A stretch of 64,000 nucleotides of DNA from a virus (IMGVR_UViG_2756170314_000001:1-64000); one strand, 5' to 3'. Numbered from the stretch's first letter, positions 11,259 to 63,727 are shown. A program made the numbers and translations. Notes: generated by a model from the sequence alone, not told the origin.

Positions 11259-11309
11259 TTTATGTACCTCCGATAACTGTAATAAACAAAAAGGACCGTT
11301 TAGGTCCTA

Positions 11310-11597
11310 TTAATTTTTAAATCTGTTTAAAATCATATCGTGTTTTCCAACCTGTTTAGAAAGGTAATCAATGTCTTTTGTAATATCACTGGTTTGTTTA
11401 TCAATTTTCTTAAGAAGAACGATTACATCTTCGTTAGTATTGCTTTCTTTCTCTGTCATCATTTCTAAACGCTGCTCGATATTATCAAGGCGTTTTTCTA
11501 CAGAATCAAATCTCTTATCAAGTTGTTCAAAGCCCTTGTCGAATTTCTCAGATAGAGATTTCATTAACTTTAAAAGTTCATCTGTCATGTCGATCAC
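11310..11597 (-). CDS. Small coiled-coil protein
   Basis: Heptad repeats (LDKRFDSVEKRLDNIEQRL); RBS AGGAG. Confidence 0.65.
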   Translation of the reverse strand: MIDMTDELLKLMKSLSEKFDKGFEQLDKRFDSVEKRLDNIEQRLEMMTEKESNTNEDVIVLLKKIDKQTSDITKDIDYLSKQVGKHDMILNRFKN

Positions 11598-11688
11598 TCC
11601 TATAAAGCATTATACAATAATTTGTAAGGTATCTCATAAATATTTTACCGAGAATAAATATTGAATATTGCGAAAATTCGAGAGCCAC

Positions 11689-12018
11689 TTAATGTGACTC
11701 TCCTATTATGTAATTCACCACGCTATCAGTAATCCATTTCAATTGTTCCCCTTCAATTTTTCCAACTTTGAAGATCAATCGATTGGCATTGATTGTATAA
11801 AGTTTATTGGTTCTTACAATTGAAGGTTTGATTAGCTCGATCTCTTTCCAATTTTCTAGTACCAAATCAAATTTGGTTCGTGGTGGTTGGCTTGATAATT
11901 TTGCAATCGTAACATCAAATTCATTTGGACCAGAATAACCAACTATTATTCCAGGTCTTCGTTTACCACTGTCAGGATCATGATACATCCAAATATCACC
12001 CTTAGAGTGATTACTCAT
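11689..12018 (-). CDS. PemK/MazF-family endoribonuclease toxin
   Basis: KGDIW...KRRPGIIV...LSSQ...KPSIVRTNKLYT...KVGKI pattern. Confidence 0.8.
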   Translation of the reverse strand: MSNHSKGDIWMYHDPDSGKRRPGIIVGYSGPNEFDVTIAKLSSQPPRTKFDLVLENWKEIELIKPSIVRTNKLYTINANRLIFKVGKIEGEQLKWITDSVVNYIIGESH

Positions 12019-12155
12019 TAATATTCATCTCCTTCATCCAGGATCTGAATACCTTTATTAAAATAAAGATCATACATCAAATCGAGTAATTTCCATCTTT
12101 CAGCCGGTTCCATATTTTTAATTTTTTCAAGGAATTCATATGCTGTCTCTTCCAT
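12018..12155 (-). CDS. 45-aa putative antitoxin (not in ORF track): MEETAYEFLEKIKNMEPAERWKLLDLMYDLYFNKGIQILDEGDEY
   Basis: AAGGAG RBS; its stop overlaps the toxin ATG (TAATG); acidic tail. Confidence 0.65.
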   Translation of the reverse strand: MEETAYEFLEKIKNMEPAERWKLLDLMYDLYFNKGIQILDEGDEY

Positions 12156-12279
12156 CGTTTTTCTCCTTTCATCTATCTCTTACATTATTAATTATACCAT
12201 TTATTGGAAGTTTCGTACACTCTTTTTTGTAAGTTCTTGTCGAATTTTGTCAGTATAAGTCAATAAAAAATGGCAAAGC

Positions 12280-12429
12280 TTATTTGGCTTCACCATTTAC
12301 GGATTCATATCTCTTAGCTCCCCCGCCAAGAAAGTATTCATCATAAACTTTGTCCAAGACTTTTTTCTTTTCTTCTTCAGGTAACTCCTCAATAAGCTTC
12401 AACATTTCATCTGCTGTATATTGTTTCAT
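12280..12429 (-). CDS. 49-aa protein paralogous to the putative antitoxin
   Basis: AGGTG RBS before ATG 12429; LKLIEELPEEEKKKVLDKVYDEYF resembles LEKIKNMEPAERWKLLDLMYDLYF. Confidence 0.55.
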   Translation of the reverse strand: MKQYTADEMLKLIEELPEEEKKKVLDKVYDEYFLGGGAKRYESVNGEAK

Positions 12430-12544: not shown

Positions 12545-13003
12545 TTAGTTAGCATACTTGAACAAGTAACCCCCTTCACGATACTTATAACCTGCAGCAG
12601 TTTCTTCTCCAGTCTTAAGAGATCGCTTTACCCATCCAACGTTTGTAATTTTATTTTCAGTTACCCAATTAAAGGTTTCCATAAGACCATCAATAGTTTG
12701 AATTAATTGGCCATCTTTATAAACTTCAATTTTTCTCTTCTTAGCCCCACGTTTTTTTTGAGAAGTTTTTTCTTCTTCTGGCATGGTATTTCTTTCTGCT
12801 TCAATCACCTTCTTGATTTGATCGTTATTAAGCATTGCTGCAGTTTCTATTCCAAGATCTTTAGCTTCAGAAATCAATTGGGTTCTTTCAATCGCATAAA
12901 TCAGTTGGGACCGGTTCATATCCCAACGACCAGTAATGTTCATTTCCTTTGCAATATTACGTAGTTCCTTAACAGATTTAACGGATAATTCAGTAGTTGC
13001 CAT
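12545..13003 (-). CDS. Rho-N-like nucleic-acid-binding protein
   Basis: SVKELRNIAKEMNITG...MNRSQLIYAI Rho-N pattern; AATCGGAGG RBS. Confidence 0.6.
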   Translation of the reverse strand: MATTELSVKSVKELRNIAKEMNITGRWDMNRSQLIYAIERTQLISEAKDLGIETAAMLNNDQIKKVIEAERNTMPEEEKTSQKKRGAKKRKIEVYKDGQLIQTIDGLMETFNWVTENKITNVGWVKRSLKTGEETAAGYKYREGGYLFKYAN

Positions 13004-13084
13004 TTAAGTTACCTCCGATTTTATGTAAAAATTAATTTGATTTATCTCTCTTATATAAATTATTATACCATTTTATGGAAGATT

Positions 13085-19013: not shown

Positions 19014-19877
19014 TTAATTATCTAACCAATTATAAAACGGCACTTGCCCATTTATTTTCTTCCCTTTGAAATCAATATTTCCATACTTTAGATTTCTTTT
19101 ATGAAGAGCATTATCAAGACAAGTTCTTAAATAGGCTCCAAAATTTTTCACATCTGGGGTCTTCTCTACTTCGTCTAAAACCATAATGCAAACTTCTTTA
19201 GGCAAACCTTTTTTCATATATTCAGAGATTAAATTATGTATAGTTTCTTCTCTTGTTAACAATTTGTTAACAAGATTATTCTCATTATTATTAAAGTTAT
19301 TTTTAATAGAGTTATTATTATTAGTGGTTCTTTTTGAACTATCCGGATGGTTCAATTTGACCTCTCTTGATGGTTCAATTTGAACTTTCCCGGAAAGTTC
19401 ATTTTGACCTATCCGTTCATTACTGGAAAGTTCATTTTGACCCATCCAGTTTTTATCTATGTTTTTGGCTGTTTCCTCTGCTTTAATTAAAAGGTCATCA
19501 ACTTCATTGTTTAACCGATAAATATCTTCTTCGGTATACTCCAGCATTAGAGGATAGAGGATGTTCGACTTGTTCATCCCTTCCCTTTTTTCTTCTAACA
19601 GTTCGTATTTTGCTAATTCTTTCTTTGCTCTTTTGAAAGTTGAATCTGAGAATCCTAGAAGCTCTGAACCTTTTTCGATGCTTAAACGAACGTAATACCT
19701 TCCGAGTTCGTCTTTCCAATTGTTCATCATACTGAGCTTGATTCGGTCGATTAAAATTATGTAGAGTTTCATGGCATTCGGATTCATAGTTTTGTACTTG
19801 TCTCCGATCAGAAGAACTTTTGGAACCTGGTAAAATACCAGAGAGTCGAGGTTATTAGCTGTGAAATATTTACTCAT
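19014..19877 (-). CDS. repN: RepA_N-family plasmid replication initiator RepN
   Basis: FYQVPKVL...AMKLY..LIDRIKLS..NNWKDE RepA_N motif; 287 aa; internal iterons as in pLS32. Confidence 0.92.
   Translation of the reverse strand: MSKYFTANNLDSLVFYQVPKVLLIGDKYKTMNPNAMKLYIILIDRIKLSMMNNWKDELGRYYVRLSIEKGSELLGFSDSTFKRAKKELAKYELLEEKREGMNKSNILYPLMLEYTEEDIYRLNNEVDDLLIKAEETAKNIDKNWMGQNELSSNERIGQNELSGKVQIEPSREVKLNHPDSSKRTTNNNNSIKNNFNNNENNLVNKLLTREETIHNLISEYMKKGLPKEVCIMVLDEVEKTPDVKNFGAYLRTCLDNALHKRNLKYGNIDFKGKKINGQVPFYNWLDN
19325..19445. repeat. Five intragenic iterons (plasmid origin) next to an AT-rich stretch
   Basis: GTTC(A/T)(A/T)TTTGA(A/C)C-type repeats at ~19325, 19348, 19371, 19395 and 19428. Confidence 0.85.
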
Positions 19878-19930
19878 TTTTGTTGCTCCTTTTTGTTGAA
19901 GTCCGAAGCAACACCTGATATAATTGAATT

Positions 19931-20042
19931 AAAAATAGCCAAAAGCAATGAAAAGGCATATATGTAGCCCTGTTAAACTTTGGTCGGTTTGCTCAGGTGC
20001 TGCCAAGCGAAAAATAGTCTAGCGCCAACTAGGCTATTTTTT
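19931..20042 (+). ncRNA. Putative antisense copy-control RNA to the repN leader
   Basis: TTGAAG(19896)-17 bp-TATAAT(19919) with upstream TG; terminator AAAATAGTCTAG-CGCCAA-CTAGGCTATTTT-TT at 20011-20042. Confidence 0.65.
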
Positions 20043-20045
20043 ATT

Positions 20046-20074
20046 ATTATAATACTTTGTTGAACTTTCGTAAA
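20046..20074 (-). promoter_or_regulatory. repN promoter
   Basis: TTTACG-17 bp-TATAAT on the - strand, about 165 nt upstream of repN. Confidence 0.65.
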
Positions 20075-20121
20075 TGAGTATAAAAAAATCCTCCTTTATC
20101 GTCGAAAGAAGGAAGAAATGG

Positions 20122-20151
20122 TTGACATATTGGGTATGTATTAGGTAAAAT
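20122..20151 (+). promoter_or_regulatory. Near-consensus SigA promoter of the putative multi-target sRNA
   Basis: TTGACA (20122-27), 18 bp, TAAAAT (20146-51); no ORF downstream. Confidence 0.75.
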
Positions 20152-20158
20152 GTGAATC

Positions 20159-20225
20159 AGTAGTTGAGTTAAAGTTATTTATCTCATAGTCCTACTCTTT
20201 TTCTCCGATTAGAGTGGGATTTTTT
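20159..20225 (+). ncRNA. Putative ~67-nt trans-acting antisense sRNA complementary to more than 20 phage translation-initiation regions
   Basis: Promoter upstream; 11-bp stem (20188-98/20211-21) with G-U pairs and a U tail valid only on the + strand; seeds AGUAGUUGAGUUAAAG, UUAUUUAUCUC and loop UUUUCUCCGAUU. Confidence 0.75.
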
Positions 20226-20235
20226 GTGTTCAATT

Positions 20236-20601
20236 TTAGGATTCATAATCATCATCATCGAAAAATGCTTCTAAATAATCAGTCTTACCACAATTGGTAC
20301 AAACTTTATCACTATTAGAGGTTTGATTGCAAAGCTCACAGTAGGCTTTTCCTTTTCTAACATCATCAATAACTTCTTCTACATATTCTTCCGGAATTCT
20401 AATTCCTTCTCTAGAGACCCCTTTAATCGGTTTAGTATTGAATTCATACTTGAATAAGGTTTCTGTATCAACTTCTAGAGTTTTCCCTGAAATTTTCTGA
20501 AGTCTATCTTCCCAAACAGGATCTCCAATGTATACTCCTGACAGATCAGTGTTTTCATTTCTATAAATGTCAGCAGCATTTCTTCTTATTTTGATTTTCA
20601 T
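20236..20601 (-). CDS. Hypothetical protein with C-terminal Zn ribbon
   Basis: ATG 20601 after GGGGG RBS; CELC...CTNC. Confidence 0.65.
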   Translation of the reverse strand: MKIKIRRNAADIYRNENTDLSGVYIGDPVWEDRLQKISGKTLEVDTETLFKYEFNTKPIKGVSREGIRIPEEYVEEVIDDVRKGKAYCELCNQTSNSDKVCTNCGKTDYLEAFFDDDDYES

Positions 20602-20710
20602 TTTATCCCCCACAGAGTAAAGCTTATTAATCTCTCTATATTTATTATAACATTTTATGTAAGAAAATAAATAAAAAGTGAGCGAAAAAGCCCACTTTTT
20701 CAATAAAAAA

Positions 20711-21298
20711 TTAAATAATTTTTTCATCATTGTAATAGTGATCAGAACATAACGCAAGATAATAACTCTTTTCTTCTACAAATGTTTCTCCAGATCGAGA
20801 GACTTTTCCATCAACAATTCGAGCATTATACTGAGCTATCTTAGAGCACTTAGAAGCTTCGCAACCTCTTGAGATTCGGTTTATGTTTTCGGAGGGTAGG
20901 ATGGTTAAAAGGTGACTAGATGAGTCAAATAACTCTCCTGTGAAGGTTAGATCAAGACCATAAAAATGAATAGGTACGTGGTAGCTTTCTGATAATGAAA
21001 CAAATTCTTCAACGGTTTCTTTAGGAAGAAATTGAGATTCATCAATATAAATTGTTTGGGTATTTGTCATGAATATAATGATTTCTAATAAAGAAATATT
21101 TTGTTTGAATTGATCCTTGTTTAAGTTAATTGATCTTAGGCTGCGTCCATCTCTACTTTCAATTTTTCCTCTTGAAAAAGTATCTTCGGTTAAACTAACT
21201 GAAAGGGCAACTTTTTCTTTAGGATCAATTAAGTAATCATCTATTAACTTTTTAGACTTTCCAGAACCCATTAAACCAGTATTAAAAGTTATATCCAT
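20711..21298 (-). CDS. tdk: Thymidine kinase
   Basis: GLMGSGKS Walker A, IDESQF, YGLDLTFTGELF, C-terminal Zn/lasso region. Confidence 0.85.
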   Translation of the reverse strand: MDITFNTGLMGSGKSKKLIDDYLIDPKEKVALSVSLTEDTFSRGKIESRDGRSLRSINLNKDQFKQNISLLEIIIFMTNTQTIYIDESQFLPKETVEEFVSLSESYHVPIHFYGLDLTFTGELFDSSSHLLTILPSENINRISRGCEASKCSKIAQYNARIVDGKVSRSGETFVEEKSYYLALCSDHYYNDEKII

Positions 21299-25251: not shown

Positions 25252-25796
25252 TTAATGTCACCATTCATAATATTAAGAATGTCCTCGATAACCTGGTCCT
25301 TATCCACTGAAACAATAGTGTAATCAACTTCAAGCTCGAATCCTTCAAAATCTCTTTCATCCGCAGCTAATCTTCTTAAAAGCTCGTCTGAGTTATCTTT
25401 TCTATTCAATCCCCTGGCTAATCGAACATCGTAAGGAGTCATTAAATAGATTCCCACAACATTGTTCGAACCGTATTTTTCAGTTAGATCGCGATAACCA
25501 GAAGGCTCTGTAATCACGATTTGGTCTTCAAAGAGTTTTATATCTTGGCTATTGATTGCATAGCTCCAGATGTCTCCGAACGCACTTCTAAAGCTATTCT
25601 TTGCAACTAATAAACCTGATTCATCAAGCCACTCAAAATAATCTTGAGTAACGAAATGATAATCAACCCCATCAATCTCATTTGGGCGTTTTGGACGAGT
25701 TGTATAGGATATAACCGTTTGATGACCTTGACGGATTAATGTCTCTAATGCTGTTGTTTTGCCAGAACACGTTGATCCAAGTAGAACATATATCAT
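25248..25796 (-). CDS. Guanylate kinase-like protein
   Basis: GSTCSGKTT and SYTTRPKRPNEIDGVDYHFV. Confidence 0.9.
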   Translation of the reverse strand: MIYVLLGSTCSGKTTALETLIRQGHQTVISYTTRPKRPNEIDGVDYHFVTQDYFEWLDESGLLVAKNSFRSAFGDIWSYAINSQDIKLFEDQIVITEPSGYRDLTEKYGSNNVVGIYLMTPYDVRLARGLNRKDNSDELLRRLAADERDFEGFELEVDYTIVSVDKDQVIEDILNIMNGDIK

Positions 25797-26089
25797 GATT
25801 CCTCACCATTGTAATTAGCAACGTAATCGAAAAAATTCATCACTTTAATTGATTCTTCAAGTTCTTTGCTGTTAAATGGGCCGTCGTAGTTTGCAATTCT
25901 ATCGCCTTCCCTATCAAAGAAAACCAATGTATGAGTCTTTTCAATTTCATATTCTTCAATTAGCTCAGGATGTTCGTCAATTGACACTTTCTCAAATTCG
26001 CTGCCTTGTAAATCTGCTGCGTTTATTTGTCTTTCCAAGAAATCATTGAGTGGATCGTTCACTTTATATATCCAAATAACCTTAACCAT
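25793..26089 (-). CDS. Thioredoxin-fold protein lacking CxxC
   Basis: KVSIDEHPELIEEYEIEKTHTLVFF Trx-like pattern; no Cys. Confidence 0.5.
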   Translation of the reverse strand: MVKVIWIYKVNDPLNDFLERQINAADLQGSEFEKVSIDEHPELIEEYEIEKTHTLVFFDREGDRIANYDGPFNSKELEESIKVMNFFDYVANYNGEES

Positions 26090-26136
26090 AGTGTATTCCT
26101 CCGATTAGTAGTTGAGTAAGGGATCCTCCGATCCCT

Positions 26137-26248: not shown

Positions 26249-26458
26249 TTATTGTTCAGTCACCACAAGGTCTTTATCTTTGTAGTACTCGACGGTAACT
26301 AAGACAATATAATATTCCACTTCTTTTTTAGTCTTCTTCGTGATCGTGTGGGATTTAAGGTATTCACCATGTTCCGCCTTCTGTTGGTCTACAATGGCTT
26401 CTGCAGCTACTTTAGTATCCGCAAAGTATTTAGTAGTGGTTTGCATAGTAGTTGTCAT
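26249..26458 (-). CDS. Hypothetical protein
   Basis: AATCGGAGG RBS; 69 aa. Confidence 0.65.
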   Translation of the reverse strand: MTTTMQTTTKYFADTKVAAEAIVDQQKAEHGEYLKSHTITKKTKKEVEYYIVLVTVEYYKDKDLVVTEQ

Positions 26459-26631
26459 ATTAATTTCCTCCGATTTATTTAATGATTTAAAGTATTAAAA
26501 TGAAAAGATATGATGAAGGATCATATCTCCAAAATAGCCAAGAATAAAACCAAGACTGATCCATCCTAAACAAATCAGATAACCAATTGAATGAATTAAA
26601 AGTGTCTCTAAGATTTTTTTGATCACTAAGT

Positions 26632-27006
26632 TTACCCCCGGACATAACCGAGTTTTGGATCCTCTTGCCGGCGATAATTCAACCGGTTCTTTTCTTTATA
26701 CAATTTTAAAATTTCTTCCTCTGTCATTTGTGCAGCAATAAGAATATTTGTAAAGAAATGCAAAGCATCAATGATCTCTTCCTTAAATAGCTGCTGCTGT
26801 TTTTCAAGATCATAATCTTCTTTTTCATACTTGCTGGACCATTCTTTAGCATAAGGAAGTTCATGAAGAGCTTCACTGAGTTCATCAATCGTCCAAAGCA
26901 TCATAGTCTTGATGTATGTGGCTTTTTCCTGAAGAGTCATGTTATCAAGGTCATAACCCATACGTTTTTGAAACTCTTTCTGACTATCAAGAATAAATTG
27001 ATTCAT
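26632..27006 (-). CDS. All-alpha NTP pyrophosphatase (dimeric dUTPase/dCTPase-like)
   Basis: DELSEAL...KEW...EEIIDALHFF...Y.EKNRLN.RRQ. Confidence 0.85.
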   Translation of the reverse strand: MNQFILDSQKEFQKRMGYDLDNMTLQEKATYIKTMMLWTIDELSEALHELPYAKEWSSKYEKEDYDLEKQQQLFKEEIIDALHFFTNILIAAQMTEEEILKLYKEKNRLNYRRQEDPKLGYVRG

Positions 27007-27292
27007 AGTAGTAGTTGAGTCCTTTCTCCGACTTAAATAATATTTTATTTATATTATTATTTAAGTTGTTATTTAATTCTTTATATTTATATCTGGTTAT
27101 TGAAAAACGTAAATCATTTATTACATTATTTTTTAAATAAATTACTTATGACCGTCATGACTGAGGGTATTATATCGGTTATAACAGAAATGTAAATCAT
27201 GACTGCGATATTTTGCATTTAGATGGTTGGTTATATTATTAAAGCAAACTAATTTCCTTGTAGAGCCCTGTAGAAGCAACAAAAGCCGCAGA

Positions 27293-31250: not shown

Positions 31251-31703
31251 TTAATCCTCTATTTTTTTATTTTTGTTTTTAAAGATGTGTGGCTGCGACA
31301 CAAAGTATGTCAGCTTAATCTTCTTATGCCCTTTTAAGTACTTATCAATGAAGTAATTAAAGAATTGAACGTCATCTTCTAAATTAAACAAGTTAGAAGA
31401 TCTTTGAAAAACGTTAATTCCAATTACTCGTTTCTCATTGTCGAATATAAAATGAACTGCTGAGATACATTCGTCACTTGATAACATAACTTGTCTTTCA
31501 CTTGAGATCCACCCTTTATCATACTTGTAAAGTAAGTGTCTTAGTTGCATTTCGAGTGAAGTATAATAAGGTTCATCAGAGTCAGGAAAGGTATTCCTGG
31601 TCTGAGGATTAATCATCGTGAAGGATTCATACAAGATCATTTCATCATTTTCTTTTAAATATTCAAGTTCGCCTACAGATGGGATTCGAGGAAATTGTAA
31701 CAT
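31251..31703 (-). CDS. Minimal thymidylate-synthase/dCMP-hydroxymethylase-fold protein
   Basis: S.RQ...ECISAVHF...VFQRSSN...DD...YFVSQPHIF mirrors the TS PC..QF / QRS.D / HIY motifs in only 150 aa. Confidence 0.55.
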   Translation of the reverse strand: MLQFPRIPSVGELEYLKENDEMILYESFTMINPQTRNTFPDSDEPYYTSLEMQLRHLLYKYDKGWISSERQVMLSSDECISAVHFIFDNEKRVIGINVFQRSSNLFNLEDDVQFFNYFIDKYLKGHKKIKLTYFVSQPHIFKNKNKKIED

Positions 31704-32677
31704 TACTCATCTTCTCCTCGGCCTGCAAGGTGATCCATATACTGTTTTGAGGCAATTTTCCATTCTTCAAGTTGATTTTTATATTCTTGGAACATTTTTT
31801 GAAACTTAGTTGGCCCTTCTGGAGGGTTGGTTCCATTAATATTTTCACGGTAGTCTTGATAAATAAAGTCTTTTTCATTCCATTCGAATTTATCTGAGTT
31901 TTCTTCTGGGAAGTACAGGTTTGTGGCATGTCCATTTCGAGCATTCTTGATGTAATGGAAACTTGGCATTTCAAAGTCGATCAGATCTAAATGAGCAATA
32001 GGATATGCCCGACACAGCTCAAGATACATTTGATATGCAATAATGTTATCTGACTTCGGTTGAATCTGGCGATCAATACGCTGCTTGCAGAATGCCAATA
32101 AATCTTTAACATTCATTGAAGCATAATAAAAGTTATCATGGTTTTTATTCAGAATAAGTCGAGCATCCATAATTGAAATCTTCCTAGAATCAATCATTTC
32201 AGCATAAAGCTCACGACATTGACGAGTAAGATCTTTGTATCTTTCTAAAAACTCAGGGGAATTTTCAATAGACTCAGGAATAACTGCAGTTGTATGAGAT
32301 AACCAACGATCCCCTGTACATTGAGCCGAGAACGAAAATGTTCTATGACGAATTAAATGGGTTACGTCTTGGACTGAAATTCCTTCAATTCGGAATGTTA
32401 AACGAATCGTTTCAAGTATTGAAGGTAGCGTTTTAAAGGTGAAGGCTTTTTCAATATCATCAACCACCTGTGCCATGCTATATGTTTCTTCAGGTTCATC
32501 AGCCCAGGTAGCATTCACATATCCAGGGAGGTAATGAATGATGCTTTCCCAAGGAGTATAATCAACAAGAGTAACTTTAATATTCTCTAAATCATTTTTG
32601 AATTCAAAATCCGGCTTTTCACCAAAGCGAATTGGCATAGGCAATTTAACAGGCTCAAGGTTATTGTTTTTAGGCAT
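31703..32677 (-). CDS. Divergent flavin-dependent thymidylate synthase (ThyX family)
   Basis: LETIRLTFRIEGIS, THLIRHRTFSF and DARLIL motifs. Confidence 0.8.
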   Translation of the reverse strand: MPKNNNLEPVKLPMPIRFGEKPDFEFKNDLENIKVTLVDYTPWESIIHYLPGYVNATWADEPEETYSMAQVVDDIEKAFTFKTLPSILETIRLTFRIEGISVQDVTHLIRHRTFSFSAQCTGDRWLSHTTAVIPESIENSPEFLERYKDLTRQCRELYAEMIDSRKISIMDARLILNKNHDNFYYASMNVKDLLAFCKQRIDRQIQPKSDNIIAYQMYLELCRAYPIAHLDLIDFEMPSFHYIKNARNGHATNLYFPEENSDKFEWNEKDFIYQDYRENINGTNPPEGPTKFQKMFQEYKNQLEEWKIASKQYMDHLAGRGEDE

Positions 32678-32773
32678 AGTTTAATTCCTCCGATTTTTCA
32701 ATATTTTTTTCAATAAGAATTACAATATATTTATATCTAAAAGTATGAAAACGTAAATCGATTTAATAATTTT

Positions 32774-33007: not shown

Positions 33008-33475
33008 TCATACGGCAGCACCTCTTGTAAGTTCATCCATTGCCTCATTTGCTAATCTATCAGCAAGTTCATTATCCGGGATTCCTGAATGGCCTTTAAC
33101 TTTGTTAAAAGTGATAAACGGGAATTGTTCGACCAGTTCAATTAATTCAATCCATAACTGGCGATTCTCCACCGGCTTTTTACCAGCTGTAACCCATCCG
33201 TTATTCATCCATTTCTTATACCAACCTTGGTTCATACAGTTACACAGATATGCAGAATCAGTATTGATTTCTACAGGGATATTAGTTGTTTTTAATTGTT
33301 TAAGGGCTTCAATAGCTGCACGAATTTCCATCATGTTATTAGTCACGTTTCTAAAGCCAGCCTTAATGGTTTTAACGTGGTCACCATATCGAAGAACTGC
33401 CCCAAAACCTCCGACATTGTTATCTTTTCCGTTATTTCTTGCTGCGCCATCGCAGTAAATTACAACCTTTTTCAT
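33008..33475 (-). CDS. rnhA: Ribonuclease HI
   Basis: YCDGA, TNNMMEIRA, TDSAY, KVKGHSG..DNELADRLA. Confidence 0.95.
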   Translation of the reverse strand: MKKVVIYCDGAARNNGKDNNVGGFGAVLRYGDHVKTIKAGFRNVTNNMMEIRAAIEALKQLKTTNIPVEINTDSAYLCNCMNQGWYKKWMNNGWVTAGKKPVENRQLWIELIELVEQFPFITFNKVKGHSGIPDNELADRLANEAMDELTRGAAV

Positions 33476-33936
33476 TAAAGGACTCCCTCCTTGACAAGAT
33501 CGTTGGCAATTTCCTCAGGAGTCTTATATGTTGTGTCTACAATGATCTTCTTCATTGGGGACTTATCAAAATAAAATTTATAAAAATGCTTATGCAAAGT
33601 ATAATCAAGAATTTCGTGGCCGGTCTGAATGCATCGATCTATCAGGACTTTTGTGTCACAATCAAGGTAAATTACGAGTACGTCTTCCATCTTAGCTAGG
33701 TGTTTTTCTAAATCATCATAGTTATCCCATAATTGAGGATCCCGACTAAACAGGTCACAGTATGTTTTAAAACCAATCGGTCCCCTATCGACTACAATAT
33801 GTTTGTAGCAAGTGGCTTTATTTATAGCATGTTGTAAAGTTGATTTTCCCGAACGATCAACACCTTCAAGGATGATGATTTTTGGCTTAACAAATTCAGG
33901 AGTCGGCGCGACAACACAAGTAGTTGAGTTAGTCAT
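33475..33936 (-). CDS. Deoxynucleoside monophosphate kinase (dTMP kinase-like)
   Basis: LEGVDRSGKST P-loop and VDR motif. Confidence 0.8.
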   Translation of the reverse strand: MTNSTTCVVAPTPEFVKPKIIILEGVDRSGKSTLQHAINKATCYKHIVVDRGPIGFKTYCDLFSRDPQLWDNYDDLEKHLAKMEDVLVIYLDCDTKVLIDRCIQTGHEILDYTLHKHFYKFYFDKSPMKKIIVDTTYKTPEEIANDLVKEGVL

Positions 33937-34128
33937 AATTGTTATATCCTCCGATTTCTTTAATCTCTTTGCTTTACTTTGTATTTATATCTGGTGATTC
34001 GAAAACGTAAATTGAAATATAAAAAAGACTACTATAGCAGTCTTTATTGGCATAACTTTTATATCCGACATAACTTTTATATCTGCTTTATAAAAAACAA
34101 AAAAGGCTGGAGACAAATCTCCAACCTT

Positions 34129-36784: not shown

Positions 36785-37243
36785 TTATTCAATTAAACCT
36801 TCATAATAGATTTCTTGACCAAGTATGGCAGCTTCCAATTCCTCAACCGTTTTACACGCAGCTTTTCCGGACTCAGCTAGCATTAAGTTGAACATTCCAT
36901 CTTTACCGAGTGTGAAGGCCACATAAATTACTGGAACACCTGATGCATAAGCATGTCCGGCTTCAAAAATGGTTCCCATATCTTTATCATCAGTGATGGC
37001 AATAACAAGCTCTGATTCTTCAATTCCTCTTACATTCATATCAAAAGACTTTTTGCGAACTTCAGGCGATGATATTGGGCCGATTGCTGATTGTTTTCTT
37101 GGTGAAAAGTAAGTTAATCCATGTTTTTCAAGTAATGTCTCGACCAAAGCAACACGAGTGATTTGATCTGGCTTGAAAAATGGCGCAGCAATGTAAACAT
37201 GTTGTTTCTTGCCTGGAGATAATGATTTAGTAGTTTGAGTCAT
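36785..37243 (-). CDS. Nucleoside 2-deoxyribosyltransferase/nucleotide N-hydrolase family protein
   Basis: VYIAAPFF, DMGTIFEAGHAYA, NLML. Confidence 0.85.
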   Translation of the reverse strand: MTQTTKSLSPGKKQHVYIAAPFFKPDQITRVALVETLLEKHGLTYFSPRKQSAIGPISSPEVRKKSFDMNVRGIEESELVIAITDDKDMGTIFEAGHAYASGVPVIYVAFTLGKDGMFNLMLAESGKAACKTVEELEAAILGQEIYYEGLIE

Positions 37244-37402
37244 AATTATTCCTCCGATTTAAATATGGTGTTTTCTCTTTATTTATATCTGGTGATTCGA
37301 AAACGTAAATTAATGTCGAAACTTTTATTACGTTTTTTCTAAAAAGCTATTTTGTCTATGATATGATTGTTATGACTACTATAATCGGAGGTTATAACTG
37401 TT

Positions 37403-49842: not shown

Positions 49843-50877
49843 TTAAAGAATTTCTTTCATTTTTTGAATTGCAACGAATAACGGCTGAACTTGTTCTTTG
49901 GAAGCATCGGTTAACTTATTGCCGGCTCCAAATACTTCATCTACAATTCTATTAACTTCATCCATACGATTTGCTTTATGGAACTGAACACCAAGCTCAC
50001 GAGCTTCTTGCATCAGAGCATCATAATCCAGCTGTTCTTCTTGTAATCCAACTGATTCTTTTTCTTCTTTCAATTGAGAAGGATCAATTAGATTAATTGC
50101 ATCAGTAACGGCTTTTTTATATGCTTCAGCATCCAAAGGAATTACTGGAGCAATACCTTCAAATGTTGAACCGGCTTGCCATTGAAGTGTTTCTCGAAGA
50201 TGGATTACACGATGTTCATTCATGTGTTCATCAGTTGTAACTGTCATGAACAAGATGTTATCAACCATTTTATTGATTGGAGCCATGACTTTATCTTTTA
50301 GATCCGGAACATACTTTTCAAATTGATAGTATTGTTCTTTGGTCTTTTTATCAGTTACAAGAGTCATAGTGTCGTTTACCTGTTCTTGAAGGACCCCTGA
50401 AACAGGAATCTTAGTTGTGACTTGAGTTGCGTGAGCAATAAACACAGGAGTGTAACCGAGTCGTTCAATTTGCTGAAGATTTTTCTTCCAATCATTTTTA
50501 AGATCAACCCAGTCTTTTCCCCATTCAACCTGGCCGAACTCTGTTTTGTCATACTTTGAAAGGATATATGTTTCAAGCATTGCGTAAAGGTTTTCTACCG
50601 TATCAATGCAAACAACATCGTATCGTTCTTTAATTTTTTTGTTCTGCAACTGAGCTAAAACCTGAAGATATTCAATCCAGTTTGAAACGTATTGAACATT
50701 GGCACCAACAAGCACTTTATGCCGTTTTTCTGTGGCGATAAACAAAACTCGATCTCCATAGAGCTTATGAACAAAAGATGTTTTACCGATTTTAGGAACA
50801 CCATAAATAAATGAAGTGTAGGATGCTAAATCCGTACTTGCCTTAATCGGCTCTAAATTTAATAAGTTAATTGCCAT
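49843..50877 (-). CDS. AAA_24/Sak4-like ATPase (ssDNA annealing)
   Basis: YGVPKIGKTS, CIDTV, FIAH; near the SSB gene. Confidence 0.8.
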   Translation of the reverse strand: MAINLLNLEPIKASTDLASYTSFIYGVPKIGKTSFVHKLYGDRVLFIATEKRHKVLVGANVQYVSNWIEYLQVLAQLQNKKIKERYDVVCIDTVENLYAMLETYILSKYDKTEFGQVEWGKDWVDLKNDWKKNLQQIERLGYTPVFIAHATQVTTKIPVSGVLQEQVNDTMTLVTDKKTKEQYYQFEKYVPDLKDKVMAPINKMVDNILFMTVTTDEHMNEHRVIHLRETLQWQAGSTFEGIAPVIPLDAEAYKKAVTDAINLIDPSQLKEEKESVGLQEEQLDYDALMQEARELGVQFHKANRMDEVNRIVDEVFGAGNKLTDASKEQVQPLFVAIQKMKEIL

Positions 50878-50945
50878 AGTTGAGTTCCTCCGATTTGTTT
50901 AATGTGATTACTTTTTATTTATATCTGGTTCTTGGAAAACGTAAA

Positions 50946-52228: not shown

Positions 52229-53194
52229 TTAAAAATCTGGCATATCATCTGTATTTGGAGCATCACTAAATGGGTTATCATCTTGTGGTGGTTCCATTCC
52301 AGTTGGCAGAGATCCAGGAGGAAGATCATTTCCGTTCGAACCAAAACCACTTGGTGGTGTATCTTCAGCTGGTTGAGAAAGCTCCTGAAGCTTAAGTTTG
52401 CGGATTTGAAGAGCTGTTTCAATTTCTTCTTCTGTATAGGCTTTATCACCAAAGTAAGGAATTTCTCCACCAATTACTTCAATATTATTTACATAGTTTG
52501 TTACCTGACGAGCTTCAGCTTTCTCAGTAGATCCAAAGCCATGTGAAACTTGGTTTGATTCTTTAACTTCGTCAACAACAGCATAGTTATTAATCTTGAA
52601 ATTTAATTGGCCAGTAGAACCTACAGGGTATAAATCCATAAATGCTTCAGCAAGTTCGGCACCAACAATTGTATTTTTAAGTTCAATAACTTCATTCCCC
52701 CAACCAACAGTGAAGCCTTTAACTTTATATTCTCCAGTTGGAAGGTCATTTTTAATAACAGGTTCAAATCCTTGAACAACCGTATCAATAGTTGCGATTG
52801 CTTTATCTGGTCGATCATTTGTTTCATCTAAACGGTTAAAGAAGATTCCTTTAACTTGATTAAACTGAACAAGGTTTCCCTGAGCATTGTAGTATTCATT
52901 TAATGTAAGTTCTCCATTAACTTCAATTCGATCGGCTGCATCTGCCCCATCATCTTCAATAGTTTTGTATTCATTTTTTACAGTTTCAATGCCTTTAAAG
53001 AGTTTTGATGATTCCATCATAAACACTGAAATTTTGATTTCCTGAACATGGTTATCAAATTTTGAAAGAACAACCAGGTTACCAGACATATACTTATTGC
53101 CTTTTTTACTTGTTTTGACCTCTAAATCTTTCGATTTAAGGGTGCCGATTACTTGAACATTATTTTGAAGTTGTCTTAATTCTTTATTTTCCAT
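52229..53194 (-). CDS. Phage single-stranded DNA-binding protein
   Basis: NNVQVIGTL OB-type start; acidic C-terminus DDMPDF. Confidence 0.7.
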   Translation of the reverse strand: MENKELRQLQNNVQVIGTLKSKDLEVKTSKKGNKYMSGNLVVLSKFDNHVQEIKISVFMMESSKLFKGIETVKNEYKTIEDDGADAADRIEVNGELTLNEYYNAQGNLVQFNQVKGIFFNRLDETNDRPDKAIATIDTVVQGFEPVIKNDLPTGEYKVKGFTVGWGNEVIELKNTIVGAELAEAFMDLYPVGSTGQLNFKINNYAVVDEVKESNQVSHGFGSTEKAEARQVTNYVNNIEVIGGEIPYFGDKAYTEEEIETALQIRKLKLQELSQPAEDTPPSGFGSNGNDLPPGSLPTGMEPPQDDNPFSDAPNTDDMPDF

Positions 53195-53253
53195 GTGATT
53201 TTCCTCCGATTTGATAGTAGTTGAGTTATTTATTTTTATAAGACTCCCATGAG

Positions 53254-53463
53254 TTACGAGAAAATTTCCTTCAATAGATCTTCAATTTCTGATGCTTCAG
53301 ATTCCTCTGTAACTTCTTCCTGAACTTCATCAAGAATTGATTTAAGTTGGTCCATAAGAATAAGAAATTCTAAATCACCGATAGCTTGCATAGCTTCATC
53401 TTGATCCATACCAGCTTGGCGAAATTGAAGATAAGCGTAGAGTTTTTCGATTTCATTTAACAT
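53254..53463 (-). CDS. Small acidic hypothetical protein
   Basis: SigN promoter and AATCGGAGG RBS. Confidence 0.6.
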   Translation of the reverse strand: MLNEIEKLYAYLQFRQAGMDQDEAMQAIGDLEFLILMDQLKSILDEVQEEVTEESEASEIEDLLKEIFS

Positions 53464-53741
53464 AAGAATTTCCTCCGATTTATGAGTGATTTTTATTACA
53501 TATCTTTTATATCTTGGGTTTTAGAAACGTAAATCAAAAAATAAATAATTTATTACTTATTTTTTTCAATAATCATCAAAGTTCCATTAGCTTATATGTT
53601 CAATAGAGATGTAATTAAACCAACTTATGTTTCTTTATGTGGAATCATTGTATTTATATCGTGAGAGTTGAAAATGTAAATCTAAATCGGATCAAATAAA
53701 AAAAGTGTAGGCGTTAAGCCCACACTTTTTGCTGTTTATCT

Positions 53742-55358: not shown

Positions 55359-55937
55359 TTATGCTGATTTTGAATCGTCAACGATAAACGTAAAATTCTT
55401 AACAACCGGTGATCTTAACATCGCTGCATCATCAGCCATCGCTTCACTCATGCTTTTCACAACTTTAATTCTTTCATTTTCGAATTCCGGATAAGATGTG
55501 AGAATAATATCTCCAATCTCTGGTTCCACAGGATTTTCAACTGTTAAGTACTTTGTAGGAACTTTTTTAGATAAAGCCCGGTATAAAGCGATCGCTTTAC
55601 CAATATGCTCATTAAAGGTATCTCTCGGATCACATTTAGCAATACCTTTTGCGTAAATTCTTCCAGACCTATAACCTTTTAATAGAACTGTTACGACACG
55701 TTTTTTTCTATTGATGTGGTATTCAGGAACAGTAGCATAAGATCCAACTTCATATCCATCGCACATAGTGGAATCTTTTAAGTTTTCAAGGTCTGACTTA
55801 GCATCTTCAATAACTTTCTTTCTAGCAGTAATAACTCTAGGTGACTTATTAGCTCTCTTAGTGAGTTCTTCTGCTGCTTTGGAAATAAATTCGTTTAATT
55901 CAGTAGTAGTCAAGTTTTTGAAATTTACCTTCTGCAT
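55359..55937 (-). CDS. Conserved phage hypothetical protein
   Basis: ATG 55937 after AATCGGAGG; GIAKCDPRDTFNEHIGKAIALYRA motif. Confidence 0.65.
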   Translation of the reverse strand: MQKVNFKNLTTTELNEFISKAAEELTKRANKSPRVITARKKVIEDAKSDLENLKDSTMCDGYEVGSYATVPEYHINRKKRVVTVLLKGYRSGRIYAKGIAKCDPRDTFNEHIGKAIALYRALSKKVPTKYLTVENPVEPEIGDIILTSYPEFENERIKVVKSMSEAMADDAAMLRSPVVKNFTFIVDDSKSA

Positions 55938-55941: not shown

Positions 55942-56466
55942 TTAGTGTTCCTCCGATTTTTTGATTTGATTTTCAATTTCTGCTTTGATCTTTGGTTCAG
56001 GTTGTTGCCAACCTTCCGGTTTAAGTATCTTTCCACTATTGCCTAAGTCATATCTCGGTTTACCATCCGGAAATAACTTGGCCATGTTTGCGTCTTGAAC
56101 AATATCAAAGAGTGGTTGTGGTTTAACTCCAGCAACGACAAATGATCCTTGAACAAAATAATTAACATCAGTTAATGCATCCATTTGGTCAACAAGAATA
56201 TCCTCAACCGGACCTTTCTTAATCACTTTAGATTCTGCAGCAGTAATTCCCCGGATTAACTCTGTTACCAACCCATAAAATTTTGTTTTGTTTCCACCTG
56301 CTGTTGCATATAAGAATTCAACTAACTCTTCAGCCGTCCAGATGGTTCTGGCCAAAGCAACATCTTCAGGAATAGATGTTGGTTTTTCTGAGATTGGGTG
56401 ATGGAATGCTCGGTGAAACTCTTCAACTTGAGATTTGGCATAGTCTAAACCTTTTTCTTCTTTCAT
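55942..56466 (-). CDS. MazG-like/PRA-PH-type nucleotide pyrophosphohydrolase
   Basis: VEEFHRAF, EELVE, DALTD, VQDANMAK, GKILKPEGW..PE. Confidence 0.8.
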   Translation of the reverse strand: MKEEKGLDYAKSQVEEFHRAFHHPISEKPTSIPEDVALARTIWTAEELVEFLYATAGGNKTKFYGLVTELIRGITAAESKVIKKGPVEDILVDQMDALTDVNYFVQGSFVVAGVKPQPLFDIVQDANMAKLFPDGKPRYDLGNSGKILKPEGWQQPEPKIKAEIENQIKKSEEH

Positions 56467-56477
56467 GATCATTCTCC

Positions 56478-60397: not shown

Positions 60398-60919
60398 TCA
60401 CTTTAAGATTTTAACTTGAATATCTCTAACACCAAATTCAATGCACTTGTCATTAGCATTTAAATAGACATCTATTTTGTTTCCTTTAATAGCTGATCCA
60501 GTATCTTCGGCCGTATATACACCATTAAGGTGTTCATATCCTTCAGGAAATTTAATTTCAACTTTAGATCCTAACGGAATTACACTTGGATCAACTGCAA
60601 TCGTACGACCTTCTTGAACTTTCGTTCCTGTCGCCGTAACAGTTCCCATTGAATATGCTGTTGAAGTAAAATGTTTATATCCCTCATAAACCCCTGATTT
60701 ATGTTTTTCAACTCCAACTTTCGTGTTTATTTCTTGTCCCGGAAAAATCAAAGAAAGATTTTTGATTTGTGGGTTAGCTTCTGCCAATTCTTGCAGAGAC
60801 ATATTATTTTCCCTCGCAATTTTTGACATTGTGTCCCCAGGTTTCACTTCTTGAGCAAACGTGGGAGAAGCAATTAGCATCGATACTACTAATGTCGATA
60901 CGGCAATTAGTTTTTTCAT
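60398..60919 (-). CDS. Secreted LysM plus 3D-domain cell-wall protein (YocH-like)
   Basis: Signal peptide; VKPGDTMSKIA LysM; TAY...IAVDPSVIPLGS...AEDTGSAIKGNKIDV. Confidence 0.88.
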   Translation of the reverse strand: MKKLIAVSTLVVSMLIASPTFAQEVKPGDTMSKIARENNMSLQELAEANPQIKNLSLIFPGQEINTKVGVEKHKSGVYEGYKHFTSTAYSMGTVTATGTKVQEGRTIAVDPSVIPLGSKVEIKFPEGYEHLNGVYTAEDTGSAIKGNKIDVYLNANDKCIEFGVRDIQVKILK

Positions 60920-61067
60920 AGGTTCTTGCCCTCCTGTTTTTATTTGGTTCATTCTTTTTCTTTCAGAACCTTTTATACTTATATCTATGAATATGAATTC
61001 GTAAATCAAAACAGTATTACATTTGGATTACAAAGAAAAGGCCTGACACATAGCCAAGCCCATAACG

Positions 61068-62348
61068 TTATGAATAAGACACTTCATCTTTATCATCTCG
61101 AATTCTATTTAATGAAGGCTGCCGTAAAGATAAACCTCCATGTTCATTTTTACTTTCTTGAAAGTATTTAATCTCAACAATCTTCCCAACCACCAAGGAT
61201 GGATCTTTCCAAAAATCAACTTTCCATTTCTCTTTTAATCCAGCTACGGCCACTCGATGTCCTTTGTAATCAACAATAATTGATCCACATTTACCTCCAC
61301 GTATATCTTCCACAACATCTAAACAACGTAAATCTGCTTCTTCTTCTGGTTTTACTTTTAAAATGCTAGGAGACTTTTTCAATTCAAATATTCCATCCGA
61401 TAAATGAATTATTAATCCTTCTTCCCCACGGCCAATTGCTTCAAGAAACAAGTCATCAATAACATCCTTGTCATTTCCAACATAGAATTTAGGAACAACC
61501 GAAATTAACGAATCTGCCGGCAGAGACTTCTTGATCGTTTCTTCTAAAAAAGAGCGTCTAGTTTTGTAAGGAACATCAAAAACACCTTTTTCATAATCAT
61601 CAATTGGAATCATGTCGAACAACAAAAATCTAACGTCTTTTTTAATTCCGTGTTTCTTCAAACGACTTTGAGTTGCTCGGAATAAGTCCGATGAGGAAAG
61701 GTTATCTCTATTCACGTTTACGAGTTCTCCTTCATAAACAAATCCTGTCGGAAGTTTTTTCATTAACTCTTCGAGTTCAATTAATCCTTCGTATTTGGCA
61801 CCGGTGGTTGTAATGAATTCGCTGCCTTCTTCCAAGTTCTTCGTTGTTGATCTGAAGCCATCGACTTTAAGTGAGACAATGAACTCTTCTCCTTTTGTAA
61901 GGTGTTTTTCAGGATTGTATTTTTGACCTTTCATAACCTTGTGTTTACTGATAAACCCTTTACCGTATACTTTATTCAAAGTAGTTGAAGAGATTCCAAT
62001 CGGCAAATCTTTTGTTAATATAGATTTGGCCAGTTCCCGTTCTTCTTCTGTTTTAAGTTGCTTTAAAAAGATCTGAATTGATTGGATTATTTGATCAGAT
62101 CCGGTATTGTAAAGAATTACGTAAGCCATAGCATCAAAGATGGTTTCAAGTTGAGTATAAGTCGGCAAACAAACTTCTTTTTCGATCTTCTTTTTTGCTA
62201 AACCCGTTTTAACAAGTGGGTCGTAAACAAACTTGAAAATCTCCTTTAAACCCTCAACATTTTCGTATTTTCTTAGTAATTCTTCTTTTCCTTTTCGGCT
62301 TGATTCATTTTTAATCTCCTTAAAAATTTCAACGTATTTCTTCATCAT
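61068..62348 (-). CDS. ATP-dependent DNA ligase
   Basis: KVDG motif I, YEGEL, LFDM, EGLII, LKVK; likely ATG at 62348 after AATCGGAGG. Confidence 0.92.
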   Translation of the reverse strand: MMKKYVEIFKEIKNESSRKGKEELLRKYENVEGLKEIFKFVYDPLVKTGLAKKKIEKEVCLPTYTQLETIFDAMAYVILYNTGSDQIIQSIQIFLKQLKTEEERELAKSILTKDLPIGISSTTLNKVYGKGFISKHKVMKGQKYNPEKHLTKGEEFIVSLKVDGFRSTTKNLEEGSEFITTTGAKYEGLIELEELMKKLPTGFVYEGELVNVNRDNLSSSDLFRATQSRLKKHGIKKDVRFLLFDMIPIDDYEKGVFDVPYKTRRSFLEETIKKSLPADSLISVVPKFYVGNDKDVIDDLFLEAIGRGEEGLIIHLSDGIFELKKSPSILKVKPEEEADLRCLDVVEDIRGGKCGSIIVDYKGHRVAVAGLKEKWKVDFWKDPSLVVGKIVEIKYFQESKNEHGGLSLRQPSLNRIRDDKDEVSYS

Positions 62349-62477
62349 AGTAGTTGAGTCCTCCGATTTTTCTTTATTTATTTCGAGTAACGAAATAATA
62401 TTATCACTTCTTTTTTGAGTCGTACACATTGATTACAGAATATTGCAAAAATAATAGCTAGATATTTGAATCTAGCT

Positions 62478-62780
62478 CTATACACATGCAGCCATTCTTT
62501 TTGCCATCCTTTTTCTTTTCTCAATAGCTTCATGGTTATTATTACGAGATCGTTTAATAACGGTTGTAAGTATCCAGCGATTTCTTTCTTTTACAAAGAT
62601 GAATTCCTTACTATTTCTAGTAAAGATATGCCTCACATTACCGTTATTCACTATCTGCTTTATATTTAAGTTTCTTACATCACGCTTAATCCTACTTTCA
62701 ATATTTTTACGGCATTCGCCTACTCTTTGTTCATATCGCTGTATTACGTGATTAGTAATGATAAAGTCTTCAAACATCAT
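62478..62780 (-). CDS. Small basic hypothetical protein
   Basis: ITNHVIQRYEQRV pattern; SigN promoter and RBS. Confidence 0.6.
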   Translation of the reverse strand: MMFEDFIITNHVIQRYEQRVGECRKNIESRIKRDVRNLNIKQIVNNGNVRHIFTRNSKEFIFVKERNRWILTTVIKRSRNNNHEAIEKRKRMAKRMAACV

Positions 62781-63727
62781 ATCTCCCTCCGATTAATGTA
62801 TGTAGTAGTTGAGTGAAAGTGGTGCTGCTGAATTGGTTATCTAACAACACCACTTTAGAAATGTCTGATAATTGGTATGATTATATCTGGCTCTATTAAA
62901 ACGTAAACCACATTAGCGAATTAATTTAATATGCCAATGCTAAAGCATTGTCTATTCGAAATTACTTACGTAATTTCTCATATGTTTATTTAATTTATTA
63001 TTTAATTTATTCATTAATAATTAATTGATATATAAAGACCATAGCTATTCGTAAGCATCCATGAAGATTAAGTTTAGAATTCTTACGACCACATCTAAAC
63101 AACTATACGTTCTTCTCCAGTGTTGATTTATAAGTTAATTCTTATTGGCTCAAACACTTAAAGCACATGACAACGGATAACATTACTAATCAACTGCAAG
63201 TCAATGATAAGGATGGTCAATGACGATTGATTAGTCTATCCATCGATCCCAGCGAAGATGAAGAATCTTCACCACCATTAATTGCTTAATGGTATTTGCA
63301 ACGGCGAGATAACCTTGGAGTTATTTGATAAAGGAGTGAACTCTCAGCTTCAAATGTCTCCGTGATTATTGAGTTGTGCAATATATTTATATCTGAGAAT
63401 GGTGAAACGTAAATTGGTAGGGAGAAATCAAACAAGAGTGAGGAAAATTCACACACGAAAAATTCGGGTGGAGTTGAAAATGATTGCCGCCTGCTCCGAG
63501 AGTTGGATCGAGGTTTGAAAAAGTAGCCGCCTACCCTTTCGGGAAAAAAATCGGTCTCGACAGGAATAACTGGAGGAGGTCCGTTCACACCAACCATCCC
63601 AAAACGCCCAAATTGTGTTGAAATTTAGGAGAAGGAACAAGAATTTTGTCATTCTTTGTTATAGAATAATAGTTAGATGGATATAATAAACATATAGAGA
63701 AAATAACCTAGTTGAGGGGGAAAATTT

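Follow-up and report, generated by a model that had tools for sequence, protein, structure and literature searches.

The first 64,000 nucleotides (nt) of IMGVR_UViG_2756170314_000001, an 84,613-bp single-contig record, were analyzed here as one window and come from a plasmid-prophage of the pBS32 family of Bacillus subtilis, in which the Shine-Dalgarno (SD) sequences of 14 predicted genes are preceded by the same four bases, AAUC. This tagged SD is complementary to the terminator loop of a candidate small RNA (sRNA) on the plus strand (20158-20222). Here it is proposed, with a probability of about 0.6, that the loop of this sRNA, together with a 5' seed (seed-1), pairs with the tagged start regions, blocks the binding of the 30S subunit and would thereby restrain the element's own replication and nucleotide genes. 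In the ancestral B. subtilis strain NCIB 3610 the plasmid is pBS32, whose SigN program kills the cell after DNA damage and is itself restrained in ways that are only partly understood.

The assignment to a pBS32-family plasmid-prophage follows from the plasmid matches of a 6-kb piece, which found 41 records of Bacillus plasmids at 95-100% identity; the piece is 100% identical to an 84,569-bp B. subtilis plasmid and 99.3% identical to pBS32 of NCIB 3610. A megablast search of 6 kb against GenBank phages gave no match. The PHP-domain polymerase is 74.6% identical to that of the Geobacillus phage GR1, the nearest phage; with the polymerases of Staphylococcus Sextaecvirus phages the identity is about 50%. 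An identity with SPbeta was dropped, as the polymerase pointed to GR1 and the plasmid matches settled the pBS32 family; these matches also show that the B. subtilis host assumed in the original prediction for this DNA was right. A simple open reading frame (ORF) caller, used without curation, gave 105 genes, 68 on the minus strand and 37 on the plus strand. According to Pfam, the minus strand encodes RepA_N (RepN), an actin-like ALP_N protein, a sigma-70 region 2 protein (SigN), the polymerase, a helicase, gyrase-like subunits, ribonucleotide reductase, ThyX and kinases, and the plus strand encodes receptor-binding, lysin, recombinase and LXG/immunity genes.

There are 14 copies of the word CTCCGATT in the window (13 on the plus strand, one on the minus strand), against 1.67 +/- 1.19 expected from dinucleotide shuffles, the largest of which gave five; none of 100 shuffles reached 14 copies. 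Twelve of the 13 plus-strand matches read as AAUCGGAGG on the opposite strand, where an ATG follows after 5-12 nt, and the remaining one, at 20203, is the loop of the plus-strand terminator hairpin of the sRNA. The sole match on the other strand, at 37383, is the SD of the plus-strand gene 37403-37927, which brings the tagged SDs reading AAUCGGAGG to 13 of the 14 matches. The canonical AAAGGAGG is not enriched in the window (5 copies vs 2.6 expected). In the whole 84.6-kb genome AATCGGAG is present 19 times, once on the plus strand and 18 times on the minus strand; 14 of the 19 are followed at 3-14 nt by a start codon whose ORF has 30 or more amino acids, a criterion independent of the gene calls. 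Tagged genes number 14 of 105 (13 of 68 on the minus strand and one of 37 on the plus strand), and 39 genes have a GGAGG SD; the gap from GGAGG to the start codon is 5-12 nt, with modes of 8 and 9, and GGAGG pairs with the CCUCC of the 16S tail, as is proper to an SD.

The tagged SDs had been noticed in the original prediction, and the excess of CTCCGATT confirms them. All 12 sites that it listed are real, each being AAUCGGAGG on the minus strand at the spacing given above, although its list left out 20203 and 37383. Its two variants are real as well, with TTATCGGAGG at 11267-11276 and AAGTCGGAG at 27026-27034, the latter in a 12-mer, TTTCTCCGACTT, starting at 27023. It had also held that the tail and lysis genes of the plus strand lack the tag, in agreement with the single tagged plus-strand gene, which encodes a DUF3967 protein and belongs to neither group.

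The exact tags on the minus strand precede genes for a Rho_N-domain protein (tag at 13012-13020, gene 12545-13003), a thioredoxin-like protein (26098-26106, gene 25793-26089, with a seed-1 site preceding), a 69-amino-acid protein (26467-26475, gene 26249-26458) and ThyX (32687-32695, gene 31703-32677), in which the tag begins 28 nt past the predicted +1 of a SigN-type promoter. They continue with a P-loop kinase-like gene (33948-33956, gene 33475-33936), the first gene after the zpdB promoter (PMC6751061), a nucleoside 2-deoxyribosyltransferase behind the zpcX promoter (37251-37259, gene 36785-37243), an AAA_24 ATPase behind the zpcJ promoter (50887-50895, gene 49843-50877), a 321-amino-acid protein with a seed-1 site preceding (53203-53211, gene 52229-53194) and a second 69-amino-acid protein behind the zpcE promoter (53472-53480, gene 53254-53463). 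The last three are found before a 192-amino-acid protein (55950-55958, gene 55359-55937), an ATP-dependent DNA ligase with a seed-1 site directly after the tag (62360-62368, gene 61068-62348) and a 100-amino-acid protein with a seed-1 site preceding (62786-62794, gene 62478-62780). The plus-strand tag of the DUF3967 gene is at 37383-37391. The variant tags, both on the minus strand, are UUAUCGGAGG (11267-11276) before a PIN-domain gene (10788-11258) and AAGUCGGAGAAA (27023-27034) before a dUTPase-like gene (26632-27006), where a seed-1 site follows. Upstream of the thioredoxin-like gene (26090-26136) there is also a stable hairpin, AAGGGAUC-GGAG-GAUCCCUU, followed by the seed site and the tag; its loop is itself GGAG in this element, and it has counterparts with different stems in GR1 and in the relatives G004 and G002.

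The 16S ribosomal RNA (rRNA) genes of two Bacillaceae-family genomes end in ...GGATCACCTCCTTT, with CTA following (tail GGAUCACCUCCUUUCUA). AAUC adds no pairs with this tail, the duplex being at -9.5 kcal/mol vs -11.8 kcal/mol for AAAGGAGG, and the longest exact 16S complement of the tagged 10-mer is CCTCC. For these reasons the tag was rejected as an extended SD with longer 16S pairing, and the earlier statement that its UC gains nothing against the anti-SD is correct. In the 41 genomes of one Bacillaceae-type family, AATCGGAGG was counted genome-wide at 12-48 copies per 2.5-5.7 Mb, and three further Bacillaceae genomes have 16-31. The density of the tag is 165 per Mb here (14 in 84.6 kb) vs about 4-10 per Mb in hosts, a difference of about 20-40 times. 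The comparison with the host that had been suggested is thus answered for Bacillaceae-family genomes, in which AATCGGAGG is rare, the B. subtilis chromosome itself lying outside this count.

The candidate sRNA, of about 60-65 nt (20158-20222, plus strand, with the 5' end placed from the -10 box), is preceded by a sigma-A-type promoter (20122-20151, plus strand) with TTGACA, a spacer of 18 nt by scan and TAAAAT, matching 11 of 12 consensus positions. From 5' to 3' it consists of a single-stranded seed, (A)GUAGUUGAGU, corresponding to seed-1 (20159-20170) and complementary to ACUCAACUACU near start codons, a small variable hairpin, and a terminator hairpin, CCUACUCU-UUUUCUCCGAUU-AGAGUGGG, followed by a U-tract. 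The 12-nt terminator loop UUUUCUCCGAUU (20199-20210) is the anti-tag, which is predicted to pair with the tagged start regions. The minimum free energy of the fold is -19.4 kcal/mol (z -4.25), and no shuffle out of 200 reaches the same stability; four of six homologs have z-scores between -4.2 and -4.7. A transcript of the minus strand was discarded as the functional RNA, given that its -10-like box is absent in GR1 and that no U-tract follows the hairpin on that strand.

Homologs of the sRNA were found in pBS32, in GR1, in four IMG/VR contigs and in two further metagenome contigs; GR1 and G004 are near-identical, as are G001 and L448, and therefore these amount to about six independent lineages. 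The GR1 locus is syntenic, flanked by the replication initiator and by the gene that follows thymidine kinase. In the six aligned homologs the -35 (TTGAC/TTGAT) and -10 (TAAAAT/TATAAT) boxes are kept and the seed GTAGTTGAGT is invariant, and all six retain what delimits an sRNA gene, namely a promoter of its own and an intrinsic terminator bounding a short non-coding unit. The terminator stems vary by lineage (CCUACUCU, GUCCUGAAUC, UCCUGUAC, CCCACACU, CCCUGCC and UCUCGUAC), with seven of ten stem pairs changed on both sides and a covariation score reached by none of 500 shuffles (six sequences, including one near-identical pair); in the stem, 78% of cells are paired, a share that drops to 32-62% on shifting the partner by 1-3 columns. 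Despite these changes in the stem, the loop CUCCGAUU is kept in seven of eight homologs. The near-consensus promoter, the invariant seed, the intrinsic terminator and the recurrence in relatives make the sRNA gene credible.

None of the 41 plasmid records with this locus annotates it. Rfam gave no match over the window, with only two at chance level (E 0.35 and 0.97) in 19850-20300. A 14-mer seed scan of IMG/VR returned chance matches only, the loop being downstream in none of 117 loci, and scans with promoter plus seed of IMG/VR and of genome contigs had no new homolog among the matches listed. The search based on RepN found one viral relative and no genome contig. A covariance model (R1) had no match in 151 genomes of one Bacillaceae-type family, a sample without a known positive, and applied to 80 of 98 loci from the metagenome scan it gave at least five matches, of which at least three are real.

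Each of the four complete genomes has exactly one more terminator-like hairpin with the CUCCGAUU loop. This second anti-tag hairpin is on the strand of the sRNA, after a gene of 163 amino acids, and its stems covary and differ between lineages; in the present element it is at 67638-67670 (plus strand, outside the window), adjoining genes for the transfer RNAs (tRNAs) tRNA-Asn and tRNA-Trp. The tRNA genes follow the hairpin at 67682-67758 (tRNA-Asn) and 67760-67833 (tRNA-Trp), and a TATAAT box is directly before it.

The loop forms 9-13 contiguous pairs with the tagged SDs, one of them a G-U pair, in line with the up to 12 bp of the original prediction, and the mean duplex energy of loop and start region is -15.6 kcal/mol for tagged genes vs -8.7 kcal/mol for untagged ones. 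Among the 105 start regions, 13 reach -13 kcal/mol or lower with the loop vs 0.67 with shuffled loops, and 12 reach -14 kcal/mol or lower with the seed vs 0.07 with shuffled seeds; in both cases none of 200 shuffles attains the observed count. The strong targets of loop or seed are minus-strand genes in every case. The word CAACTACT is present 16 times in the window vs 1.56 expected (10-fold), 15 times on the minus strand. Seed sites are placed from -31 to +10 relative to start codons, within the coding sequence in several genes, and they are present in nine of 14 tagged vs eight of 91 untagged start regions, which upholds the claim that many genes carry both sites. The untagged strong seed targets include ribonucleotide reductase alpha, both gyrase-like subunits, the helicase and the polymerase. 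Upstream of several leaders with a seed site (in GR1, in G002 and at 13019-13080 of the window) there is a recurring block, TATAATAAT..AGAGAGATA(T)AAAT, with the form of a sigma-A-like -10 and then a second -10-like box.

The tag is found in all six related genomes (complete or large fragments), on the strand opposite the sRNA, and the tagged genes in the five relatives number 18 of 106, 5 of 97, 14 of 99, 4 of 60 and 4 of 30. Across the six genomes 59 of 247 GGAGG SDs are preceded by AATC, the next most frequent being AATT with 14, and AAAA has five. At orthologs with 50-87% protein identity the tag is kept although the flanking bases differ; it is retained in all five genomes with the AAA_24 gene, in four of four with the 321-amino-acid gene, in four of four with the deoxyribosyltransferase and in four of five with ThyX. 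Two outgroup phages have a related polymerase, about 51% and 57% identical, and neither tag nor seed was found in the Sextaecvirus phage (50 kb covered) or in the distant contig (24 kb covered; polymerase 57% identical). Selection for complementarity between tag and loop is well supported, since the tag is conserved, brings no gain with 16S, is rare in hosts and is missing together with the sRNA from the outgroups.

SigN promoters have been mapped by Rend-seq (Burton et al. 2019, PMC6751061), and their consensus, as described there, corresponds to a ATTTACGTTT...CAGATATAAAT block which is upstream of many tagged genes. The promoter pattern has 25 matches in the genome, 24 on the minus strand (13959-63379) and one on the plus strand at 68567, exceeding the 19 listed in Table 2 of PMC6751061, where induction by SigN is 38-400-fold. 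Five of the 25 SigN-type promoters have a tag within 70 nt, starting 16-28 nt past the predicted +1; these are the leaders of ThyX, zpdB, zpcX, zpcJ and zpcE. The remaining nine tags lack a promoter of this kind upstream and the spacing is variable, and therefore the tag was rejected as a promoter element, though it marks the same functional module. That only five of 14 tags are in SigN-type leaders, that the element is of the pBS32 family and that a second anti-tag hairpin exists are three points that had not been part of the original prediction.

In the mechanism proposed here, a sigma-A-type promoter would give rise to an sRNA of about 60-65 nt with two single-stranded surfaces. The loop UUUUCUCCGAUU would pair with the GGAG of the SD and the four bases AAUC just upstream, over 9-13 contiguous pairs, and the seed (A)GUAGUUGAGU with ACUCAACUACU, which many of these start codons have at a position between -31 and +10. 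Since AAUC is unpaired with 16S and rare beside host SDs, it could work as an address, by which the sRNA would pair with the mRNAs for the element's replication and nucleotide metabolism much better than with those of the host. With the GGAG core of the SD taken up in the duplex, the expected effect of the pairing is repression through blocked 30S binding. A promoter of the sigma-A type points to a presence of the sRNA in the carrier state, in which it would silence leaky mRNAs of the SigN regulon, and it would be titrated once SigN induces them. In the plasmid state the sRNA would in this way set a translational threshold on the hyper-replication program driven by SigN, and in lytic relatives such as GR1 it would shut off the tagged genes; the second anti-tag hairpin (67638-67670) probably adds to the anti-tag pool. 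Antisense asiN RNAs against sigN are already known to restrain the pBS32 program (Burton et al. 2023, PMC10601692), and the threshold view matches this restraint as it is described there.

A wider formulation falls a little short of an even chance. It sees in these elements an RNA address code, in which a tag of 8-9 nt at the SD, which the ribosome does not read and host SDs hardly ever have, would let the sRNA and the second hairpin, at the 3' end of an mRNA, gate translation of the whole replication and nucleotide module independently of host mRNAs, and which would be kept across Bacillus and Geobacillus phages and set the threshold for SigN-driven hyper-replication and death in pBS32. The original prediction, that the tag lets the sRNA occlude phage ribosome-binding sites, is partly supported: the missing 16S gain, the preserved loop octamer, the preserved tag and its rarity in Bacillaceae-family genomes speak for it, and no computational test able to contradict it did so.

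Several observations weigh against restraint by the sRNA. The tag precedes the seed site in five of the nine regions with both, an order suited to one sRNA molecule, and in the other four the seed site comes first, an order in which one molecule cannot pair both without crossing. Whole-molecule co-folding, which cannot model loop pairing, gave no separation, with a mean of 39 'targets' for shuffled RNAs vs 27 observed. Two weak pairs are predicted inside the terminator loop. The tag has been gained and lost, as sigN is tagged in GR1, G004 and G001 and untagged here, and its count varies (18, 14, 14 and 5) across the four complete genomes. The base 5' of the tag is C in none of 14 tags here, in five of 18 in GR1 and in four of 14 in G004, a weak test in which GR1 and G004 are near-identical. 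In L448 (2482-2549), which is closely related to the G001 phage, the sRNA loop reads CUCCUAUU instead of CUCCGAUU; a tag changed in step would read AAUAGGAGG, and the 14.8-kb contig is without its tagged genes, so that covariation of loop and tag is uncheckable there. Two raw-read RNA runs had no reads on the sRNA locus and are hence uninformative either way, and in two RNA libraries the contigs span the locus in pieces of 5.4 kb and 24 kb, which are silent on a 60-nt RNA.

A different reader of the tag, namely a protein or nuclease encoded by the element, with the complementary loops as competitors, protectors or coincidence, is unlikely, although it survives better than the other alternatives. 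The window does encode PemK/MazF, PIN_12 and Rho_N domains, the tag weakens pairing with 16S and thus needs another reader, and its count differs among relatives that all carry the sRNA. We know of no candidate protein reader with specificity for the tag, however, and a protein-only model does not predict the exact complement in two independent hairpin loops, with different stems, in each of four genomes, nor the co-occurring seed site that is complementary to the same RNA.

It is distinctly unlikely that tag and seed site are a non-regulatory leader cassette spread by duplication or recombination, with the sRNA locus as the antisense of a decayed leader. The minus strand of the locus does bear AATCGGAG and ACTCAACTACT, as a leader would, and several tagged leaders share long promoter-proximal identity (e.g., 33977 and 37275). 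However, a spreading cassette accords poorly with the small share of tags behind SigN-type promoters (5 of 14), with some tagged SDs being preceded by coding sequence (e.g., 8475 of GR1), with the wide placement of the seed site (-31 to +10, inside the coding sequence in several genes) and with the 9-mer being kept at orthologs while the flanks diverge, and the plus strand of the sRNA locus keeps its promoter, U-tract and stem covariation in all lineages.

The position of the locus could also point to a role in cis. The sRNA is flanked on one side by the stop codon at 20236 and on the other by a minus-strand terminator (20113-20089), directly upstream of the repN promoter (20074-20046), and this position is syntenic in GR1; it could then be mainly an antisense of the 3' untranslated region of the upstream minus-strand operon (gene 20236-20730, with its end at this terminator) that insulates repN from read-through, with the tags serving otherwise. 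Such a role is very unlikely, as it leaves unexplained the conservation of seed and loop rather than of the remaining RNA, the 9-10-fold enrichment of complementary motifs near other start codons and the same loop in a second hairpin elsewhere. Least probable of all is that the pairing activates or stabilizes the target mRNAs, by protection from 5' exonucleases or by storage until the sRNA is displaced; tags in short leaders, 16-28 nt from the predicted +1, would allow a 5'-end duplex to block decay, but the duplex covers the SD core GGAG, and a duplex over the SD prevents 30S binding in RNAIII, RoxS/RsaE and P1 c4.

Restraint by the sRNA in trans was also set apart from copy control of repN. 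The sRNA was rejected as a countertranscript of repN (19014-19877, minus strand, with a leader of about 160 nt from the predicted promoter at 20074-20046), because it lies upstream of this promoter and past the minus-strand terminator. A different plus-strand unit at 19896-20042 fits that role. With its TG-extended -10 promoter at 19896-19924 and its terminator at 20009-20042, this unit is antisense to the repN leader, is kept in GR1 and would produce an RNA of about 115 nt that looks like a copy-control countertranscript. The repN SD (AAAGGAGC) is in the 3' arm of a hairpin, GUUGCU...AGCAAC (19878-19912, minus strand), and may be sequestered.

Outside these subjects, the regions 7970-10017, 10043-11258 and 11689-12155 of the window hold an LXG/PT-TG polymorphic-toxin gene with an Imm70 immunity gene. 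Two neighboring ORFs in 10043-11258 each match PIN_12 and are possibly a single split gene, and in 11689-12155 a PemK/MazF-like gene comes after an ORF of 45 amino acids.

Literature searches on GR1, on phage sRNA, SD and Bacillus, on pBS32/pLS32 RNA and on the motif found no account of the sRNA or of the tag, with the supplements of PMC6751061, which may show it, and a 2020 review of pBS32 outside their scope. The terms 'Shine-Dalgarno' and 'sRNA' are absent from the SigN papers PMC6751061 and PMC10601692 in the parts covered. Should the proposal hold, an unannotated sRNA with at least 14 tagged targets would add a post-transcriptional layer to the SigN program, testable in a model organism; a mobile element would be making its own mRNAs addressable via bases adjacent to the SD that only its RNA reads, and the principle could serve orthogonal translational control.

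Among known systems, the 3' hairpins of S. aureus RNAIII (including its terminator hairpin) and RsaE/RoxS are chromosomal sRNAs, or parts of them, whose C-rich loops pair with ordinary host SDs. The candidate sRNA would likewise offer a C-rich loop (here CUCC) to the GGAG of several mRNAs in trans, and, as in RNAIII, its terminator hairpin would double as a pairing surface. Unlike in those sRNAs, the complementarity extends into an AAUC prefix that marks only the element's genes and is unread by the ribosome, and there is a second site for the 5' seed and no Rfam match. In phage T4, RegA is a translational repressor and RegB a nuclease that cuts GGAG in early SDs. Similarly, a phage-encoded factor would act here on the start regions of a whole class of its own early genes; RegA and RegB are proteins, whereas the reader here would be an RNA with specificity by base pairing, in effect an RNA counterpart of RegA.

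The immunity RNAs of prophages and plasmid-prophages, such as P1/P7 c4, P4 CI RNA and P22 sar, act on one operon through one or two sites. As in these, it is proposed here that a small structured RNA holds down a lytic program by pairing of its loop at the ribosome-binding sites of the mRNAs; unlike in these, the site is repeated at no fewer than 14 start regions of this element (18 in GR1), and the sRNA has its own promoter, with no processing from a target operon. Of these RNAs, sar is cited in PMC10601692. The asiN RNAs described in that paper belong to the same element and would follow the same logic, an RNA raising the threshold of SigN positive feedback; they are cis-antisense through one gene, whereas the sRNA is 3.4 kb from sigN, which is untagged here, and would act in trans if at all. 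Closest in kind are Firmicutes sRNAs with an anti-SD loop and plasmid-prophage immunity RNAs, and what would be new is an element-wide address tag beside the SD.

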